Below, piece after piece: positions 28,170 through 36,097 of a stretch of 64,000 nucleotides of DNA. The position numbers were made by a program, and so were the translations under genes. The notes under the pieces are model-generated. The model had not been told where the DNA came from. It ran no database searches and was given only the letters and a program-made list of their open reading frames with translations. This stretch comes from an uncultured Bifidobacteriaceae bacterium (GTDB lineage Bacteria; Bacteroidota; Bacteroidia; UKL13-3): assembly GCA_964535575.1 (NCBI GenBank), contig CAZHTC010000003.1:112640-176639 (forward strand), read 5' to 3'. Numbering within the stretch: position 1 is the first letter of the stretch; every line of letters starts with the position of its first letter.

Positions 28170-28535
28170 CTAATGTTGTTCCTCGTCTCTTTTTACCAGC
28201 ATATAATAGCTGCCATCCAGTGGCAGGTATCCATACTCGTAACAAAACATATAAACGTTTCCAGTTTTAGTACTGTATCGATGGGTGTGATAATAAAAAT
28301 TGAATCCCTTATCTGATAACCTTTGACCACTCACCTTAATTTTTCCTTCAGCAGCAGGTATCAGTTCTTTCATGATAAGCCGGTTTTTTCGAAGGATATT
28401 ATTTATGTTGCGCATATGGGTATCATCAGCCTTCAATCGGTTGTTGTAGGCGGTACGGCATTGGTCGTCACAAAATTTTTTGTCAATGCGGCCTTTTAAT
28501 TCGGCCTGGCAATACTGACAGGTGTTTAGCTTCAT
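28170..28535 (-). CDS. Hypothetical protein with an N-terminal C4 zinc ribbon
   Basis: CQYC-x12-CDDQC at the N-terminus. A basic region follows. Confidence 0.45.
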   Translation of the reverse strand: MKLNTCQYCQAELKGRIDKKFCDDQCRTAYNNRLKADDTHMRNINNILRKNRLIMKELIPAAEGKIKVSGQRLSDKGFNFYYHTHRYSTKTGNVYMFCYEYGYLPLDGSYYMLVKRDEEQH

Positions 28536-30415: not shown

Positions 30416-30702
30416 ATTCGACAATTGTTATTTTTTAGATGAATTTTAAATTTATTTTTTAATATAATTATAAATATTTGTTTTACAAGCATTTATTTTT
30501 TTATAAATTTTAATTATTTTAGACAAATAATTTTGTTTTATGAAAAAATGTGTACATTTGTGTCCGAACAAACGAAAAAATGAGTACAAAACTTAACCAA
30601 TTAATTACATCCGTTACGAATTGCCTTGATGAGGTGATCTGGTTACTCATACCCGGACAAAAAATGACTTACCAATTTTATAAACCTTTAAAAATTAATG
30701 TT

Positions 30703-31473
30703 ATGAATGCACTTAAAAAATTATCTCTGGCTGCACTTCTTATGTCGGCACTTCCGTCTTTTGCGCAATTGCAGGACGAAAAAAATGTTACTATCACCAT
30801 GGATCTTCAACCCATTCTTCAGTTAAACATGACAACTGCTGATCAGGTGAATTTTGTATTTGACGATATTGCCAGCTACTATGGTGGGTTGGTTCGTTAC
30901 GGGGCTACCACCCTTAAAGTATCAGCTTCTGTAACCTGGGATTTATATGCCGTGGGAACATCAACAAATGGTACAAGCTGGGACCAACAGGTGAAATATG
31001 GTACAGCGGCTAATCCAAATGCAATTGGAGCACTTCCTTTATCTGCACTTGAATTACACCAAAGAGGGGCTAACAACTATGATGCGAATGCTACCGGGGC
31101 ACAAACCGATTACAGTGCTCAGTTTTCTCCGGCTCAAACAGCTGCCGTGGGTGTAAATTGTATTTATACAAATGCAAATCCATATATCGCACCTACCGCT
31201 GCCGATAAATACATTCAGGGCCATAAAGGAACTGTTGCCGCACAGGATGGAGCACCTGGAGGAAGTTACCTAACAGCTACCACTTCGGCCGGTAGCGGTA
31301 ACATAAGTGATTATATGTTTATCATTGACTATCGTATTTTGCCCGGATTACCAGCAGTATTTCCGAATGCTGGAGATAATGCAGGAACGTCTCAATCCCT
31401 CACTGCGGGGCAGTATGCTCAACCCGGTGTGTATACTATGAATGTTAAATATGTATTACTCGAGGATCAATAG
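30703..31473 (+). CDS. Secreted subunit-like protein A (paralogue of 32512..33153), candidate fibre subunit
   Basis: SPI-type signal ...ALPSFAQ. The mature N-terminus has an alternating hydrophobic strand (VTITMDLQPILQLNM). The C-terminal motif DYMFIIDYRILPGL...GVYTMNVKYVLLEDQ is shared with the second copy. There is no T9SS CTD. Confidence 0.5.
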   Translation: MNALKKLSLAALLMSALPSFAQLQDEKNVTITMDLQPILQLNMTTADQVNFVFDDIASYYGGLVRYGATTLKVSASVTWDLYAVGTSTNGTSWDQQVKYGTAANPNAIGALPLSALELHQRGANNYDANATGAQTDYSAQFSPAQTAAVGVNCIYTNANPYIAPTAADKYIQGHKGTVAAQDGAPGGSYLTATTSAGSGNISDYMFIIDYRILPGLPAVFPNAGDNAGTSQSLTAGQYAQPGVYTMNVKYVLLEDQ

Positions 31474-31605
31474 GTTGATTGTTTTTTCATATGCCCAAAT
31501 TCGTAGTCGGTCCGAAAGGATCGGCTGCGTTTTTTTATCGGGCGGAAAACACAATTCCAATAATAAGAACGAGGACTAAGTTATCAGACCTAAACAAAAG
31601 GGCAG

Positions 31606-32484
31606 ATGAAAAACAACAAACCAAATTTATTTTTATTCCTATTCTTTTTCGGAATAATCGGCACGTTAAAGTCGCAGGTAATTTCAACAAGTGATTTGAA
31701 ATCGGATACAACTACAATTGCCGATGAAGGGGTTGCGGTAACTCCGTCCAGCATCAGATTATTTCTTAGACCTGGCGAAACAATTACTAGGGAAATAAAG
31801 GTTACCAACAAAACAAAAAGGGCCTATTCCTTTAGTGTGGCTTTTAATGATTTTAATATGGGCGAAAATGGAAAACCTCAAAACATGGACAGTGCTTTTC
31901 ATAAGTTCTCTCTGTCGAAGTGGGCCGTTGCATCGCCTATGTTTTTTGAGGTTCAGCCTGGTCAGGTACAAAAAGTTCAACTTACTATCACTATTCCGGC
32001 TGATGAGTCGGGGAAAGTGGCTGCCTGGACAATTATGAGTATTGATCAGGTGGCTAAAAGAGAACAGGTGGTAACAGCAAGCAGTGATGCCAAATCGGTT
32101 GCACTGGGAGTAATTCCTAGTTTTGGCTTTGGGATTTATGTGTATCAAAACCCACCTGATGCCGGTGTACCAAAACTTGAAATTGACAAATTTGAAAAAA
32201 CCACTGATGGGAAAGATAAAGAGAAAAGATTATTGCTCCATGTAAAGTCGGAAGGCAATGCCATAGGTTTTTGTCATTCGTATATTGAACTTACTAATAC
32301 TTCAACAGGGGAGTTAATCAAATTGCCGGTGCGCCACTTTACTATTCTCCCGGGTTTTGAACGGGCCATCTATTTCAGTTTACCTGCACAACTTTCAAAA
32401 GGAAAATATTCTGTCATGGCAGTGATAGATTACGGAAGTAAGGAAGATATAAAGGCAGCCGAACTTGAGTTGCAGGTAGAATAA
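31606..32484 (+). CDS. Periplasmic protein with a PapD/FimC-like pilus-chaperone signature
   Basis: After the signal peptide, VAVTPSSIRLFLRPGETITREIKVTNKTKRAYSFSVAFND aligns by eye with FimC GVALGATRVIYPAGQKQEQLAVTNNDENSTYLIQSWVEN. Shared positions are the invariant Arg, P-G, VTN and the trailing aromatic. Further Ig-like segments follow. Confidence 0.45.
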   Translation: MKNNKPNLFLFLFFFGIIGTLKSQVISTSDLKSDTTTIADEGVAVTPSSIRLFLRPGETITREIKVTNKTKRAYSFSVAFNDFNMGENGKPQNMDSAFHKFSLSKWAVASPMFFEVQPGQVQKVQLTITIPADESGKVAAWTIMSIDQVAKREQVVTASSDAKSVALGVIPSFGFGIYVYQNPPDAGVPKLEIDKFEKTTDGKDKEKRLLLHVKSEGNAIGFCHSYIELTNTSTGELIKLPVRHFTILPGFERAIYFSLPAQLSKGKYSVMAVIDYGSKEDIKAAELELQVE

Positions 32485-32511
32485 TGTTCAATATAATTTC
32501 CGGTACTACCA

Positions 32512-33153
32512 ATGGAAATACAAAAACAATATTTCGTTCTTTTAGGCACATTGTTGCTATGTGCCGCCACTACACAGGTGAATGCCCAGTGCGGGCCACC
32601 GGCAGCAAGCAATTGTCAGGCAGTTCCTGCCAGCAATATGTTTATTACCGGAAACACTAATCTTGACTTTATTTTCGATTCATTCGGCAAATATAGCAGT
32701 GGTATTACCATAAGCGGGGCCACACAGTTACGCCTCACAGTTTTGCCAAATAATGCTTCCTGTAAATGGAAATTAAGGGTGTATATCGACAACAATCCTT
32801 CAGCCCCTACACCGTTAAATGAATGGGAAACACTTTCAGGCTATGGAGGAACAGGAAATATTCCGCAAATAGATCTAATGGAGGTTAGAATTTATAACGG
32901 ATGCAATACCCCTATCAACAGCGGAATTTATCAAAATTTCACCCCACTAAATGGTTCTTATATCGATATCATAAATGATATAGTGCTTAATCCTGCAGGT
33001 TCTTGTGTTTCCAATGTAAATGGTGCCGGAAGTTATCTCACCAATTACAAGGAGTACAGTTTTACCATCGACTACCGCCTGCAGCCCGGATTGCTTTATA
33101 AGGCTGGGGCTTACCAATTAACACTAAGGTTTTGTCTGGTAGAAGATGTATAG
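32512..33153 (+). CDS. Secreted subunit-like protein B (paralogue of 30703..31473)
   Basis: Signal peptide ...TQVNAQ. Cys pairs are present. The C-terminus YSFTIDYRLQPGLLYKAGAYQLTLRFCLVEDV shares the IDYR-x-x-PGL ... aromatic/hydrophobic ... L-x-ED motif with protein A. Confidence 0.5.
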   Translation: MEIQKQYFVLLGTLLLCAATTQVNAQCGPPAASNCQAVPASNMFITGNTNLDFIFDSFGKYSSGITISGATQLRLTVLPNNASCKWKLRVYIDNNPSAPTPLNEWETLSGYGGTGNIPQIDLMEVRIYNGCNTPINSGIYQNFTPLNGSYIDIINDIVLNPAGSCVSNVNGAGSYLTNYKEYSFTIDYRLQPGLLYKAGAYQLTLRFCLVEDV

Positions 33154-36097
33154 CCGCAAAACGATAGCAGGGATTAAGGTCGAACCAAAAAGAAAAATAT
33201 TCTTTTGTTTCCACCTTTTTTTGTTTCTTCTTGTTTTTACCTATTCAATAAGTTTTGCTCAAAATAACCCAGCGCAGCTTCTTATTTTTCCAAAGCAAAA
33301 GATAATACGCATTGAAGAAATGGCAATAGTAAGCAATGTAGTACTTATAAGAAACAATTCAAACGCGGAGGTAAGGTTTTCGATAGAAGCAACCATGCCC
33401 AAAGGATGGAAGCTGTTAAATACAAAAGCTGTTTATACGGTGAATGGAAACGATTCGCTTTTTGTTCCGGTAAGAATTATTCCGACAGGTCCTCTTAAGG
33501 GAAATACCGAGTATATTATTGACCTTATTGTTTATAATACATCAAAAGTAAGGTTAAACTCGGCCTCTTTCTCACTGCTTATATTGAAGAAAACAAACTG
33601 GACCCTTGGGGTTGAACCATCAAATAAAATTTACTTTCTTAACAATTCAACTAAAACCAATTTTACGGTTCGCTATTCTAACAATGGAGATGACGATGAA
33701 CCGGTGCTTACTACTTTCAAACAAACAGATAAAAAAATTTCCATCACTGATAGTTCGGGTAATGTAATAGAGAATTACAAAGATATTTTTACTTTACGGT
33801 CGAGGCAGGATACACAGGTAACTTTTAATGTTTCGTTTGCCGAAAATACGCATAATATTAAGCGGGTTGATTTGGATAACCATCTCCCAAATTCAACGGA
33901 TGAAGAGCGAAAATTCTTGCTTTTTCTTCAATCGGCTGAGGCAAACAGCAAAGACAATAATAGTACATTCAGAAAGAGCGAGAAAATTGAATTTATTAAA
34001 CTGTCAAACCGCAAAAAAATTAATCCATATGCCTCAGATGCACTGCCGTTGGTAATGGAAAATAATATTTTTAACGTTATGGGAATACAACCGGTAATGT
34101 ACCTTAATCTGCGAGGGAATACATTACTTGAAAATAATTCCAATCTGTTTTATTATGCCCAAACAAGCTACTCCAGTTATTTCACAACTCCCGATTTTGC
34201 CCGAAATATTGCTTATTACGCGGGTTACTTTCATGAAAAGGGAGATATTCAGATAGGAGATATGAGCGGTTCAGGTACAATAGGTTTTCAAAGTTTCGGA
34301 CGCGGGATTAAAGGAAGTTATAATTTTACCAAGCGTCACAATGTTGGTGGTTTTTTGCTAAAGTCTCCCCGGTTGTCTGATCCCAATGGAAGCGTTTCGT
34401 ACGGGGCCAATTATAAGTTTTCATTCAACCGCTCTGATTATGCATCTGCACAGGTAAGCCGATCTGAAAATTTGTTGCATCATACTTCAAGTAATTTTGT
34501 AACTGCCACTACACGGATGAATTTATTCAAAAATCACGGGGTAACGCTTGGAGGAGGAATAAGTTCAAGAAACCATCCCGTGAGTAATCTGAAAAAGAAC
34601 GGAACATATGTTAACTTTAACTATTCGGGATTGTTTCTGCAAAATCGGCTTTCGGCTGTATTGCGTATAAGTAATTTGTCAAAGTCATTTGGTGAAAGTG
34701 GCTCGGGGCGTTTTTATGTGTATCACCAAACCGGGTTTACTGTTTCAAAAAAATTAATGCTCATGATGCAAAATAATTATACCACCATGACTACAGTCGG
34801 CAATGCCGGGTATAATTACTTTAACAATCAACTGTTTTTTAATATTAAACAGCAAAGAGGTGCAGTAGTGCCAAGCCTTTTATTCAACACTCAAAATACG
34901 TTTGGTTTGAGAAGACACTTTAAAGGAGTGGGTTTTGATTATAATTATTATCATATACTCTCAAATATTAAAGTCTCTACTTCTCTCAGAGCGGGCTACA
35001 ATAAACTGATTGATTATCGTGATGTATCTTCATTTTTTTCAGCTAACGCCAATCTGCTTACACAGTTCAGAACGTTAAGTTTTACCATGCGGTATTTCTA
35101 CGGACCTACCGTGGTGAGAAATGCCGATGATATAAAAAATCTGCGCAGGTATCCGCAAACTTTTTTCACCTCCCTTCAGCATCAGCTAATTTTTAAAAAG
35201 GAATATTTTGTTTTGCAAAACAACCTCAATTATTCTTACTATAATCAGTTTTTCAGCCACACGTTCGGGTATTTTCCCGAACTTTATCTGTTTACACAAA
35301 ATGGTTGGCGTTTCAGAGCGGGGGTTGGTGTTTCAATGAATGTAAGTAATCCGCGAAAAGCGCTCGAAATGCAAAACCCCGGACAAATTCCAGGTAGCAA
35401 TGGCGTGAGCACCAATATTCTTACAACCAACCTGAATGTTCAGTTTGGGGTGCGTAAACAATTTGGAATACCTGTGCCTGCACAATTTACTCATCGCAGG
35501 TTTGTTACCATTAATTATTTATGCTTTATGGATTTAAACGGAAACAGGATTAAAGATAAAGCCGAACCCGAGCTTGAAAACATTGTTATAAGAACCGGGG
35601 ATGAAGAACTGATGACAGATTTAAACGGGCAGGCCGAACTCATTAATCTGGAGGCGGGGCGCTACAAAGTGAGTCTGATAAATCTTAGTGAATCTAAAAC
35701 ATGGTTTCCGGTTATTGGGGATAGTGTATTAATGGATCGGTCTAAAACCATAATGGTTCCTTTTGTTAAAGGATCAAAAATTACCGGACAAATATACCTG
35801 CAGCGCGAAAGATATGCGGTAGATGAGGAAATAAGTCTCGACTTATCGCGTATAGTGGTTACTGCCGAGGATTCGATGGGGAATAAATACCGAACCATTA
35901 CACGAATGGATGGTACTTTTGAGTTGTTTGTACCAAATGCCCGCTATATCCTTAATTTAGATGCCGGAGTTTGGGGCGATCAGTTTACGGTTGTCAACAA
36001 TAACATGATTGTTGAGCTCAATCTTAAAACGGAAAATACGTTTGTTTCTTTTCAGGTAGTGGAGCGGCAGAGAAAACTACAGATAAAAAAATTCTGA
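33146..36097 (+). CDS. Large outer-membrane protein, candidate usher-like assembly platform
   Basis: 983 aa. A signal peptide is followed by an Ig-like N-terminal region and a roughly 500-aa N/S/Y/F/G-rich region with alternating beta-strand pattern. Two Cna-B/CarboxypepD_reg-like C-terminal domains follow (DLNGNRIKDKAEPELENIVIRTGDEE...). The terminal Phe is typical of an outer-membrane barrel. The start overlaps the stop of subunit B. Confidence 0.4.
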   Translation: MYSRKTIAGIKVEPKRKIFFCFHLFLFLLVFTYSISFAQNNPAQLLIFPKQKIIRIEEMAIVSNVVLIRNNSNAEVRFSIEATMPKGWKLLNTKAVYTVNGNDSLFVPVRIIPTGPLKGNTEYIIDLIVYNTSKVRLNSASFSLLILKKTNWTLGVEPSNKIYFLNNSTKTNFTVRYSNNGDDDEPVLTTFKQTDKKISITDSSGNVIENYKDIFTLRSRQDTQVTFNVSFAENTHNIKRVDLDNHLPNSTDEERKFLLFLQSAEANSKDNNSTFRKSEKIEFIKLSNRKKINPYASDALPLVMENNIFNVMGIQPVMYLNLRGNTLLENNSNLFYYAQTSYSSYFTTPDFARNIAYYAGYFHEKGDIQIGDMSGSGTIGFQSFGRGIKGSYNFTKRHNVGGFLLKSPRLSDPNGSVSYGANYKFSFNRSDYASAQVSRSENLLHHTSSNFVTATTRMNLFKNHGVTLGGGISSRNHPVSNLKKNGTYVNFNYSGLFLQNRLSAVLRISNLSKSFGESGSGRFYVYHQTGFTVSKKLMLMMQNNYTTMTTVGNAGYNYFNNQLFFNIKQQRGAVVPSLLFNTQNTFGLRRHFKGVGFDYNYYHILSNIKVSTSLRAGYNKLIDYRDVSSFFSANANLLTQFRTLSFTMRYFYGPTVVRNADDIKNLRRYPQTFFTSLQHQLIFKKEYFVLQNNLNYSYYNQFFSHTFGYFPELYLFTQNGWRFRAGVGVSMNVSNPRKALEMQNPGQIPGSNGVSTNILTTNLNVQFGVRKQFGIPVPAQFTHRRFVTINYLCFMDLNGNRIKDKAEPELENIVIRTGDEELMTDLNGQAELINLEAGRYKVSLINLSESKTWFPVIGDSVLMDRSKTIMVPFVKGSKITGQIYLQRERYAVDEEISLDLSRIVVTAEDSMGNKYRTITRMDGTFELFVPNARYILNLDAGVWGDQFTVVNNNMIVELNLKTENTFVSFQVVERQRKLQIKKF

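Follow-up and report, generated by a model that had tools for sequence, protein, structure and literature searches.

In the type V pili of the Bacteroidota, the subunits are lipoproteins; a protease cuts off the N-terminal strand of each pilin, and the C-terminal strand is donated. Another strand-exchanged fiber, the TLP-1 fibril, had its structure solved in 2024 from pond water (PMC11494351; PDB structures 9IKJ and 9IKK). TLP-1 fibrils are 8-nm helical tubules with a 15-Å channel, in which the N-terminal strand β1 of protomer n+4 completes the immunoglobulin-like (Ig-like) domain of protomer n; β2a, β2b, and the C-terminal strand β7 make up the acceptor cleft (PMC11494351). Because the donor is protomer n+4, the tubule is made of four parallel strand-linked chains. 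The TLP-1 authors could find the protein neither in their metagenome nor by mass spectrometry and could not name the species, and their paper covers the protomer only, with no gene or locus, second subunit, or assembly factors (PMC11494351). Here we describe a locus in a 64,000-nucleotide (nt) stretch of contig CAZHTC010000003.1 (assembly GCA_964535575.1, positions 112,640 to 176,639), from an uncultured bacterium with a GTDB lineage in the Bacteroidota; we refer to this whole stretch as the window. Four tightly packed plus-strand genes at positions 30703 to 36097 of the window, in the order A-P2-B-P4, appear to form a self-contained cassette for a Bacteroidota TLP-1-type tubular pilus, with A as the shaft, B as a cap or initiator, P2 as the chaperone, and P4 as the pore. 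We give this reading a probability of about 0.7.

The shaft subunit is the best-defined part of the locus. Neither Pfam nor NCBIfam has a model for A or B, and the relatives of A, more than 1,000 in number, are all hypothetical or unannotated; where the organism is named, it belongs to the Bacteroidota. A profile of the A family matched the TLP-1 structures in the PDB with E values of 1.9e-65 (9IKK) and 3.5e-64 (9IKJ), profile positions 22 to 253 aligning to chain residues 2 to 236. We modeled A as a single chain with AlphaFold2 (AF2; predicted local distance difference test score [pLDDT] 81, predicted template modeling score [pTM] 0.80), and the fold is that of the TLP-1 protomer family, a β-sandwich head with long outer loops. 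When this model was compared with solved structures by Foldseek, 9IKJ/9IKK was the sole strong match (E 1e-14, template modeling score 0.73 to 0.79). Identity between A and TLP-1 is 32 to 38%, so A is another TLP-1 family member and not the TLP-1 gene itself. The original prediction, made from the raw sequence of the two small secreted proteins, had offered, as one of two readings, that they are polymerizing fiber subunits, and the homology of A to the TLP-1 fibril protomer in both the profile and the Foldseek comparison supports that inference.

The N terminus of A carries the clearest functional signature. The signal peptide MNALKKLSLAALLMSALPSFA is followed by QLQDEKNVTITMDLQPILQL, and the predicted mature N terminus coincides with the start of the TLP-1 chains in the alignment. 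In the profile alignment, the donor strand QLQDEKNVTITMDLQP lies on TLP-1b residues 2 to 16, LISEQNVTVTMDLQP; the segment VTITMDLQP of A pairs residue for residue with the TLP-1 donor strand, and the two cores, NVTITMDLQP in A and NVTVTMDLQP in TLP-1, are almost identical. The donor strand is nearly invariant among 81 family members, and no other part of A is as well conserved in the family. The earlier description of this alternating strand as reminiscent of donor-strand extensions is therefore borne out by its alignment with the TLP-1 donor strand and its conservation. Judged by these alignments, A is very likely the shaft subunit of a strand-swapped TLP-1-type tubular pilus.

Both open reading frames (ORFs) were present as quoted in the original prediction, with the letters of the two C termini and of the N-terminal strand exact. 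They had been called paralogs, and BLASTP aligned A and B over their full length at 23% identity (E 4e-7), while hhalign matched the A family (81 sequences) to the B family (78 sequences) with a probability of 99.8% (E 9.4e-28). By these comparisons, A and B are paralogs beyond doubt. The most conserved part common to the two families is a C-terminal skeleton, [FY]-x-I-D-Y-R-[IL]-x-P-G ... G-x-Y ... [YF]-x-L-x-E-x-x-end. The motif first noticed in these two proteins is family-wide, occurring across about 80 genomes, and the family extends well beyond the window's two genes. The skeleton as originally written is conserved across the families, except that the Cys in the RFCLVED of B is not. In the motif region of A, D209, Y210, R211, I212, P214, L216, P217, Y250, L252, E254, and Q256 are invariant (68 sequences); in B, F184, D187, P192, G199, and E211 do not vary, and conservation of R189, F207, and L209 is at least 90% (72 sequences). 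The protein ends exactly two residues past the conserved Glu in 79 of 81 A sequences and 63 of 78 B sequences.

The position of this motif in the fold suggests what it does. In the model of A, strand E205-212 lies within YMFIIDYRILPGLP, which aligns to TLP-1 FYFTISFRVVPALP, and strand E242-254 covers the C-terminal strand PGVYTMNVKYVLLEDQ, which aligns to TLP-1 PGVYTLNVKFVMVE. By position, the C-terminal strand of A should be β7, a wall of the acceptor cleft. Aligned as it is with the two final strands of the mature protomer of TLP-1, the motif appears to be structural and retained in the fiber, which argues against a cleaved sorting signal. A separate feature shared by the two paralogs is an invariant Trp-x-Leu, at residues 77 to 84 of A (30931-30954, VTWDLYAV) and residues 84 to 90 of B (32761-32781, CKWKLRV). 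Beside a DUF916-like partner (see P2 below), it recalls the WxL proteins of Firmicutes, and no WxL-domain similarity was detected.

B differs from A at the N terminus. A B-family profile matched TLP-1b with an E value of 1.2e-7, and the alignment runs only from TLP residue 16 on, past the donor strand. In all family members, the mature N terminus of B starts with Gln; after zero to two residues comes an invariant Cys and then a short variable stretch, and no member has an NVT.TMDLQP strand. The invariant Cys residues of B are C27, C84, C131, and C165 (72 sequences). As aligned, B keeps the shared motif and has no donor strand, which is found only in A. Since B can accept a strand but cannot give one, it would be placed at the acceptor-only end of a strand-linked chain, where it could be the cap or the initiator. 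Tip subunits of chaperone-usher pili also have no N-terminal extension. Each locus has exactly one B.

Natural fusions bear on this placement. We searched a superfamily set of 213 representatives, clustered at 50% identity, and found 14 to 15 clusters of B::A fusions of 420 to 457 amino acids (aa). Fusions of this kind, with lengths from 357 to 457 aa, are those at L118 3572-4837 and in P0216-P0218, P0226, P0229-P0232, P0234, P0236, P0239, P0240, P0243, and P0246. Their layout is a complete B-type domain, about ten residues, the donor strand, and a complete A-type domain, with the B-type C terminus lying internally. In L118, the fusion fills the slot of B, between a separate A gene and P4. This arrangement is that of engineered self-complemented pilins. 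If the strand of A fills the cleft of B, fusions with the donor strand retained between the B-type and A-type domains are to be expected, and they support a cap or initiator role for B.

To define the cassette, we scanned one genome per species and found relatives in 184 stretches, the best 80 of which were analyzed as loci L001 to L080. Almost all of these best 80 of 184 loci come from Bacteroidia, Bacteroidales, Flavobacteriales, Chitinophagaceae, and Sphingobacterium, and they include one from a cultured carrier, Pseudotenacibaculum haliotis KCTC 52127 (L059). In the same scan, the window matched a Bacteroidia metagenome-assembled genome at 99%. Of the 80 loci, 77 have P2 and 75 have P4, the missing ones being at contig ends; the full set, with a single copy each of A, B, P2, and P4, is found in about 75 of the 80 species-level genomes. 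P2 is linked to A and B as strictly as P4 is, and no other gene family near the cassette is common to more than 12 loci. The usual gene order is P2-A-B-P4 (62/80 loci), with A-B-P4-P2 in 6; the order in the window, A-P2-B-P4, is rare (L001 and L002 only, 2/80). The window itself holds one cassette, with no second copy. Two single loci stand apart: L052 has two tandem A genes, and L080 (JAADJA010000056.1) is a complete cassette in a metagenome-assembled genome labeled Chlorobiota, which could reflect either a wider distribution or a binning error.

We also rebuilt the density-derived TLP-1b sequence from the printed alignment and scanned it against metagenomes. The best matches, on Joint Genome Institute (JGI) metagenome contigs, reached 52 to 55% identity, and these closest metagenomic relatives of TLP-1b sit in the same cassette of A, B, P2, and P4. 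At that best identity, the exact TLP-1 gene was not found.

In P2, a signal peptide precedes two β-sandwich regions, and there is no membrane anchor; P2 and its homologs end ..AAELEF.. with no hydrophobic segment. The combination of a signal peptide and no anchor suggests that P2 is a soluble periplasmic or secreted protein. In Pfam, the first domain of the window's P2 matched DUF916 (WxLIP_PGBD) with an E value of 0.0031 and 18 bits, under the 27.3-bit cut-off, and this P2 had no PapD match. Among 44 P2 family members, 25 matched WxLIP_PGBD/DUF916 at E ≤0.01 (best 6e-7), 5 matched PapD_N (best 6e-4) with other PapD-like Ig families matching too, and none matched DUF3324. Three P2 homologs are named PapD in the JGI annotation. 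Against PDB sequences, P2 gave noise plus EfmWxLIP1 at an E value of 0.2 to 0.3; matches to synaptotagmin C2 were taken as β-sandwich noise.

We therefore compared the P2 family directly with a profile built from eight Escherichia coli K-12 PapD-like chaperones. The hhalign alignment is collinear over both domains and 198 columns (P 5e-4, probability 30%), and its trimmed score of 29.4 exceeds the maxima of column shuffles (23.4, n = 120) and block shuffles (28.8, n = 100). P2 SPSFFEL.PGE..KV pairs with chaperone TPPLF.L, P2 IALGIIPTF.FGVYIYQNPP pairs with the G1 strand region ..RIKLFYRP of FimC-family chaperones, and P2 FTILPG and V.DYGS pair with the corresponding PapD_C motifs, INDYG among those matched. 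The alternating-hydrophobic strand VALGVIPSFGFGIYVYQNPP, at the end of the first domain, has as its core IPSFGFGIYVYQNPP (residues 170 to 184), in which F175, Q181, and P183 are invariant and P184 is conserved in at least 90% (78 sequences); this strand may act as a donor strand. Judging from the profile alignment, P2 probably belongs to the PapD-like chaperone superfamily as a remote member, and by analogy with those chaperones it may bind and complement A and B. The original prediction had spoken of a PapD-like protein as a possible partner of A and B. The collinear similarity to PapD-family chaperones agrees with this, but the similarity is weak and the Arg8/Lys112 pair is absent.

P4 was modeled with AF2 as a single chain from 13 sequences (pLDDT 72, pTM 0.43) and shows a barrel between two pairs of β-sandwich domains (Table 1). 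The N-terminal pair resembles P2: hhalign aligned P4 residues 40 to 235 with P2 residues 38 to 265 collinearly over two domains (probability 66%, P 5.7e-5), with a trimmed score of 28.5 against block shuffles with a mean of 18.1 and a maximum of 27.1. From this alignment, P4 seems to carry its own chaperone-like module. The C-terminal region matched the Pfam families SdrD_B, CarboxypepD_reg, and SpaA in 9, 8, and 6 of 13 members, respectively, and the window's P4 has only a weak SdrD_B match in Pfam and NCBIfam. P4 and 12 homologs had no Usher match in Pfam, and the P4 sequence had no match in the PDB. We rejected usher homology of P4 at the available sensitivity (Pfam, PDB, and hhalign against seven ushers). 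As modeled, P4 is an outer membrane barrel with an usher-like layout and without demonstrable usher ancestry.

Some P4 proteins are longer. One clade of 1231 aa has an extra C-terminal LysM peptidoglycan-binding domain (L118 4958-8653 and L119 1416-5111), and other P4 proteins reach 1180 to 1325 aa (L029, L032, L049, and L075). The LysM domain at the C terminus suggests that this end faces the periplasm.

These parts can be combined into a proposed assembly route. All four products would be exported by Sec. By homology to the solved TLP-1 structure, signal-peptide cleavage before Gln22 frees the N-terminal strand QLQDEKNVTITMDLQP of A, which inserts into a further A subunit and completes its Ig-like fold in trans; the C-terminal strand ..VYTMNVKYVLLEDQ borders the cleft that receives it. 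Until strand exchange, P2 would occupy the clefts of periplasmic A and B with an alternating-hydrophobic strand of its own, ..IPSFGFGIYVYQNPP. Each A arriving at P4 would use its donor strand to displace P2 from the subunit before it, the chain starting from B and the fiber growing outward. P4 would serve as both outer membrane pore and assembly platform, with its large barrel and with periplasmic β-sandwich modules on both sides, and B would occupy the acceptor-only end of each donor-strand-linked chain as cap or initiator. The hairpin after A would keep A in excess over the other three products.

Several results weigh against these roles for P2 and P4. P2 has no conserved basic counterpart for Arg8/Lys112, the two residues by which classical chaperones hold the C-terminal carboxylate of a subunit, Lys112 pairing with the invariant Phe175, and its similarity to the chaperones is weak (probability 30%). 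The P4 model rests on 13 sequences with a pTM of 0.43, hhalign against seven E. coli ushers gave a probability of 0.5%, and the barrel matches TonB-dependent receptors no less well than it matches ushers. No plug domain is evident. By a rough geometric estimate, the lumen of a barrel of about 28 strands is near 4 nm, with room for one chain only, and the usher analogy leaves the co-assembly of four chains into an 8-nm tubule unexplained. Making an 8-nm four-chain tubule through a pore of about 4 nm would call for more than one P4 pore or for several B caps in register. A rival reading is a fiber assembled without a chaperone, in which A and B polymerize by donor-strand exchange outside the cell, as in TasA fibers, archaeal bundling pili, and cannulae. 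P2 would then be a structural or anchoring partner, as proposed for Firmicutes WxLIP, P4 a secretion channel or anchor, and B a cell-proximal nucleator like CsgB for curli. Donor-strand polymers without a chaperone are known (10.1101/2024.12.30.630787), the best Pfam match of P2 is DUF916/WxLIP_PGBD and not PapD_N, and EfmWxLIP1 (E 0.2) is its only pilus-related match among PDB sequences; the missing Arg8/Lys112 equivalents, the missing usher homolog of P4, and the difficulty of passing a four-chain, 8-nm geometry through one pore point the same way. However, the signal peptide and the lack of a membrane anchor make P2 a soluble periplasmic or secreted protein, its collinearity with the PapD-like chaperones takes in both domains and the G1 strand region, and its linkage to A and B is no less strict than that of P4. 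Even the WxLIP comparison is double-edged, as a WxLIP strand is predicted by AlphaFold to complete the β-sandwich of its partner in a chaperone-like manner (PMC10599100). We regard chaperone-free assembly as unlikely but as a serious competitor to a chaperone-assisted pilus.

Two further explanations strike us as much more improbable. The original prediction had offered, as an alternative to fiber subunits, that the conserved C terminus is a shared targeting signal for the adjacent outer membrane protein; such a signal could be read by P4 or belong to the T9SS (type IX secretion system) class, and would not be a structural strand. A motif common to both paralogs, with the end of the protein fixed two residues past the Glu in 79/81 A and 63/78 B sequences, does fit recognition of a free C terminus. 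Yet the motif corresponds to the last two strands of the mature TLP-1 protomer, which are uncleaved in the fiber, the last of them, β7, forms part of the acceptor cleft, and the B-type C terminus is internal in the B::A fusions. No NCBIfam model of a T9SS C-terminal domain matches A or B, and reading the two proteins as T9SS cargo was likewise rejected, as neither has a Por_Secre_tail-type NCBIfam match and the C terminus is kept in the mature TLP-1 fiber. A cleavable sorting signal is therefore very improbable; by analogy with classical pilins, the motif may have a dual role as structural strand and chaperone docking site. It is just as hard to credit that A and B are not fiber subunits here and instead build a coat resembling an S-layer, or stay monomeric on the surface as proteins sharing the TLP-1 fold. 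The identity of A to TLP-1 is only 32 to 38%, but no part of the A family is better conserved than the donor strand, which is almost identical to that of TLP-1, and the whole cassette also surrounds the closest TLP-1 relatives. A chaperone-assisted, TLP-1-type pilus is the reading that we carry forward.

The genes and their parts are listed in Table 1, together with the candidate transcription signals.

Table 1. Coordinates of the four-gene cassette, its protein segments, and nearby signals (positions in the window)
Feature	Position	Strand	Description
Candidate Bacteroidota-type promoter	TTTG 30532-30535, TAcaTTTG 30553-30560	+	Upstream of gene A; read from sequence
Gene A	30703-31473	+	256 aa; likely the shaft (major subunit) of a tubular pilus of the TLP-1 type, built by donor-strand exchange
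A signal peptide	30703-30765	+	Residues 1-21; predicted cleavage ..SFA↓Q, N-terminal Gln
A donor strand QLQDEKNVTITMDLQP	30766-30813	+	Residues 22-37
A motif YMFIIDYRILPGLP	31312-31353	+	Residues 204-217; second-to-last β-strand, shared with B
A C-terminal strand PGVYTMNVKYVLLEDQ	31423-31470	+	Residues 241-256; β7 by position
Terminator-like hairpin	31502-31536	+	12-bp stem with 7 G-C pairs, then T7; directly 3' of gene A
Gene P2	31606-32484	+	292 aa; secreted two-domain β-sandwich protein; putative periplasmic chaperone
P2 alternating-hydrophobic strand VALGVIPSFGFGIYVYQNPP	32098-32157	+	Residues 165-184; candidate complementing (G1-like) strand
Gene B	32512-33153	+	213 aa; minor subunit, A paralog; putative cap or initiator
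B C-terminal motif YSFTIDYRLQPGL ... AGAYQLTLRFCLVEDV	33055-33150	+	Residues 182-213
Gene P4	33146-36097	+	983 aa; outer membrane protein; putative export/assembly pore (usher analog)
P4 N-terminal two β-sandwich domains	33263-33850	+	Residues 40-235 (model 45-231), after signal peptide; resemble P2
P4 barrel	33908-35473	+	Residues 255-776; about 26-28 β-strands
P4 C-terminal two prealbumin-like β-sandwiches	35501-36064	+	Residues 786-973; probably periplasmic; from the model

The start of P4 overlaps the end of B by 8 nt, and in related loci the gap from B to P4 has a median of 5 nt, with B and P4 nearly always coupled. A hairpin (≤ -8 kcal/mol) followed by a T-run lies 3' of A in 49 of 79 related loci, with differing sequences. 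The hairpin after A is probably a partial terminator, giving an excess of shaft-subunit mRNA, and it may have an attenuator role. In all four proteins, Gln stands just after the hydrophobic stretch of the signal (SFA↓Q, LKS↓Q, VNA↓Q, and SFA↓Q for A, P2, B, and P4), and the first codons after the predicted signal peptides begin at 30766, 31675, 32587, and 33260. This agrees with the Bacteroidetes Q-rule, by which signal peptidase I exposes Gln (PMC5837995).

Other features of the window are minor. The candidate promoter consists of TTTG, a 17-nt spacer, and TAcaTTTG, about 140 nt 5' of the A start. It resembles the Bacteroidetes promoter consensus, TTTG / TAnnTTTG, and we give this candidate low weight. 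Upstream of the cassette, a 121-aa ORF on the minus strand (28170-28535) has a Cys-rich zinc-ribbon-like N terminus (CQYCQ...CDDQC). This ORF stands just upstream of two genes ahead of the cassette, one ssb-like and the other radical-SAM-like, both labels being read from translations. Rfam and tRNA scans of the window were both empty.

How the shaft subunit folds and assembles was already known from the 2024 structure; A adds a new member to the TLP-1 family. In the papers searched, we found no description of the cassette, of the strand-less paralog and its fusions, or of a Bacteroidota home for the TLP-1 family, nor of the remote PapD/DUF916-like protein or an usher-like barrel without detectable usher homology. 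Searches on TLP-1 genetics or on DUF916 in Bacteroidota returned nothing relevant, and among the papers searched we found no later one that names a TLP-1 gene, organism, or assembly machinery. This locus and about 110 related ones place the TLP-1 family in the Bacteroidota, and they show the shaft subunit accompanied by one strand-less paralog, one chaperone-like protein, and one large outer membrane barrel. We see even odds that such a cassette is the genetic basis and assembly machinery of the orphan TLP-1 fibrils, and that it would define a new chaperone-usher-like pathway, apparently largely restricted to Bacteroidota. In such a pathway, a remote PapD/DUF916-like chaperone, an outer membrane platform with its own chaperone-like module and without detectable usher homology, and a strand-less cap subunit would build a hollow four-chain tubule by n+4 strand exchange, and not a single-chain fiber. 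The loci point to cultured carriers, such as P. haliotis KCTC 52127 (L059), and make the origin and biogenesis of this orphan environmental fiber directly testable.

If the proposed roles are true, the cassette would be a third route to surface fibers in the Bacteroidota, besides type V pili and T9SS adhesins. To our knowledge, no chaperone-usher systems have been described in this phylum. In that case, the Bacteroidota would be a phylum in which the chaperone-usher principle arose or changed until it could no longer be recognized, and the four-chain geometry would pose a new assembly problem.

Compared with described systems, the locus is closest to the TLP-1 fibrils. The two share full-length homology of A, the fold, the N-terminal donor strand, the C-terminal strands, and an N terminus processed by signal-peptide cleavage; B, P2, and P4 are the additions of this locus to the TLP-1 paper. 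The type V pili (FimA/Mfa) have in common with it the phylum and strand exchange between Ig-like subunits. In contrast to their pilins, A has a signal of the signal peptidase I type with Gln at +1, lacks a Cys where it is cleaved, and donates its N-terminal strand. We rejected a type V pilin reading of A on the basis of this donor strand and the lack of a FimA/Mfa match in Pfam and NCBIfam.

The WxL/WxLIP (DUF916-DUF3324) clusters of Firmicutes (PMC10599100; PDB structures 9I1Y and 9I25) resemble the locus in that the best Pfam match of the first P2 domain is a sub-threshold one to WxLIP_PGBD/DUF916, and in their content of one two-domain Ig-like protein and two small paralogous secreted proteins. 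They differ in that P2 has no DUF3324 match or C-terminal transmembrane helix, the partners A and B have no detectable WxL domain, and WxL clusters have no outer membrane protein. We treat this relationship as a lead and not as a finding.

The likeness to proteobacterial chaperone-usher pili, whether classical (Fim/Pap), alternate (Ecp/CFA-I), or archaic (Csu), is mainly one of organization. Both have subunits that are exported by Sec, are incomplete in their Ig-like fold, and carry a donor strand at the N terminus, one subunit without a donor strand (B, like tip adhesins), a two-domain periplasmic protein with a conserved alternating-hydrophobic strand (P2), a large outer membrane barrel with periplasmic β-sandwich domains on both sides (P4, as modeled), and a terminator after the major-subunit gene. 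The components themselves differ. A and B have no sequence similarity to classical pilins, and neither sequence homology nor close structural homology of the subunits to known chaperone-usher pilins was found; P4 has no sequence similarity to ushers. P2 is marginally similar to the PapD family and is without the Arg8/Lys112 pair. The P4 barrel is apparently larger than that of ushers (about 26 to 28 versus 24 strands), with no visible plug and with an N-terminal chaperone-like tandem module. The donor is n+1 in chaperone-usher pili and n+4 in TLP-1, and the host phylum here is Bacteroidota. Taken as a whole, the system looks like a new chaperone-usher-like variant in the Bacteroidota.

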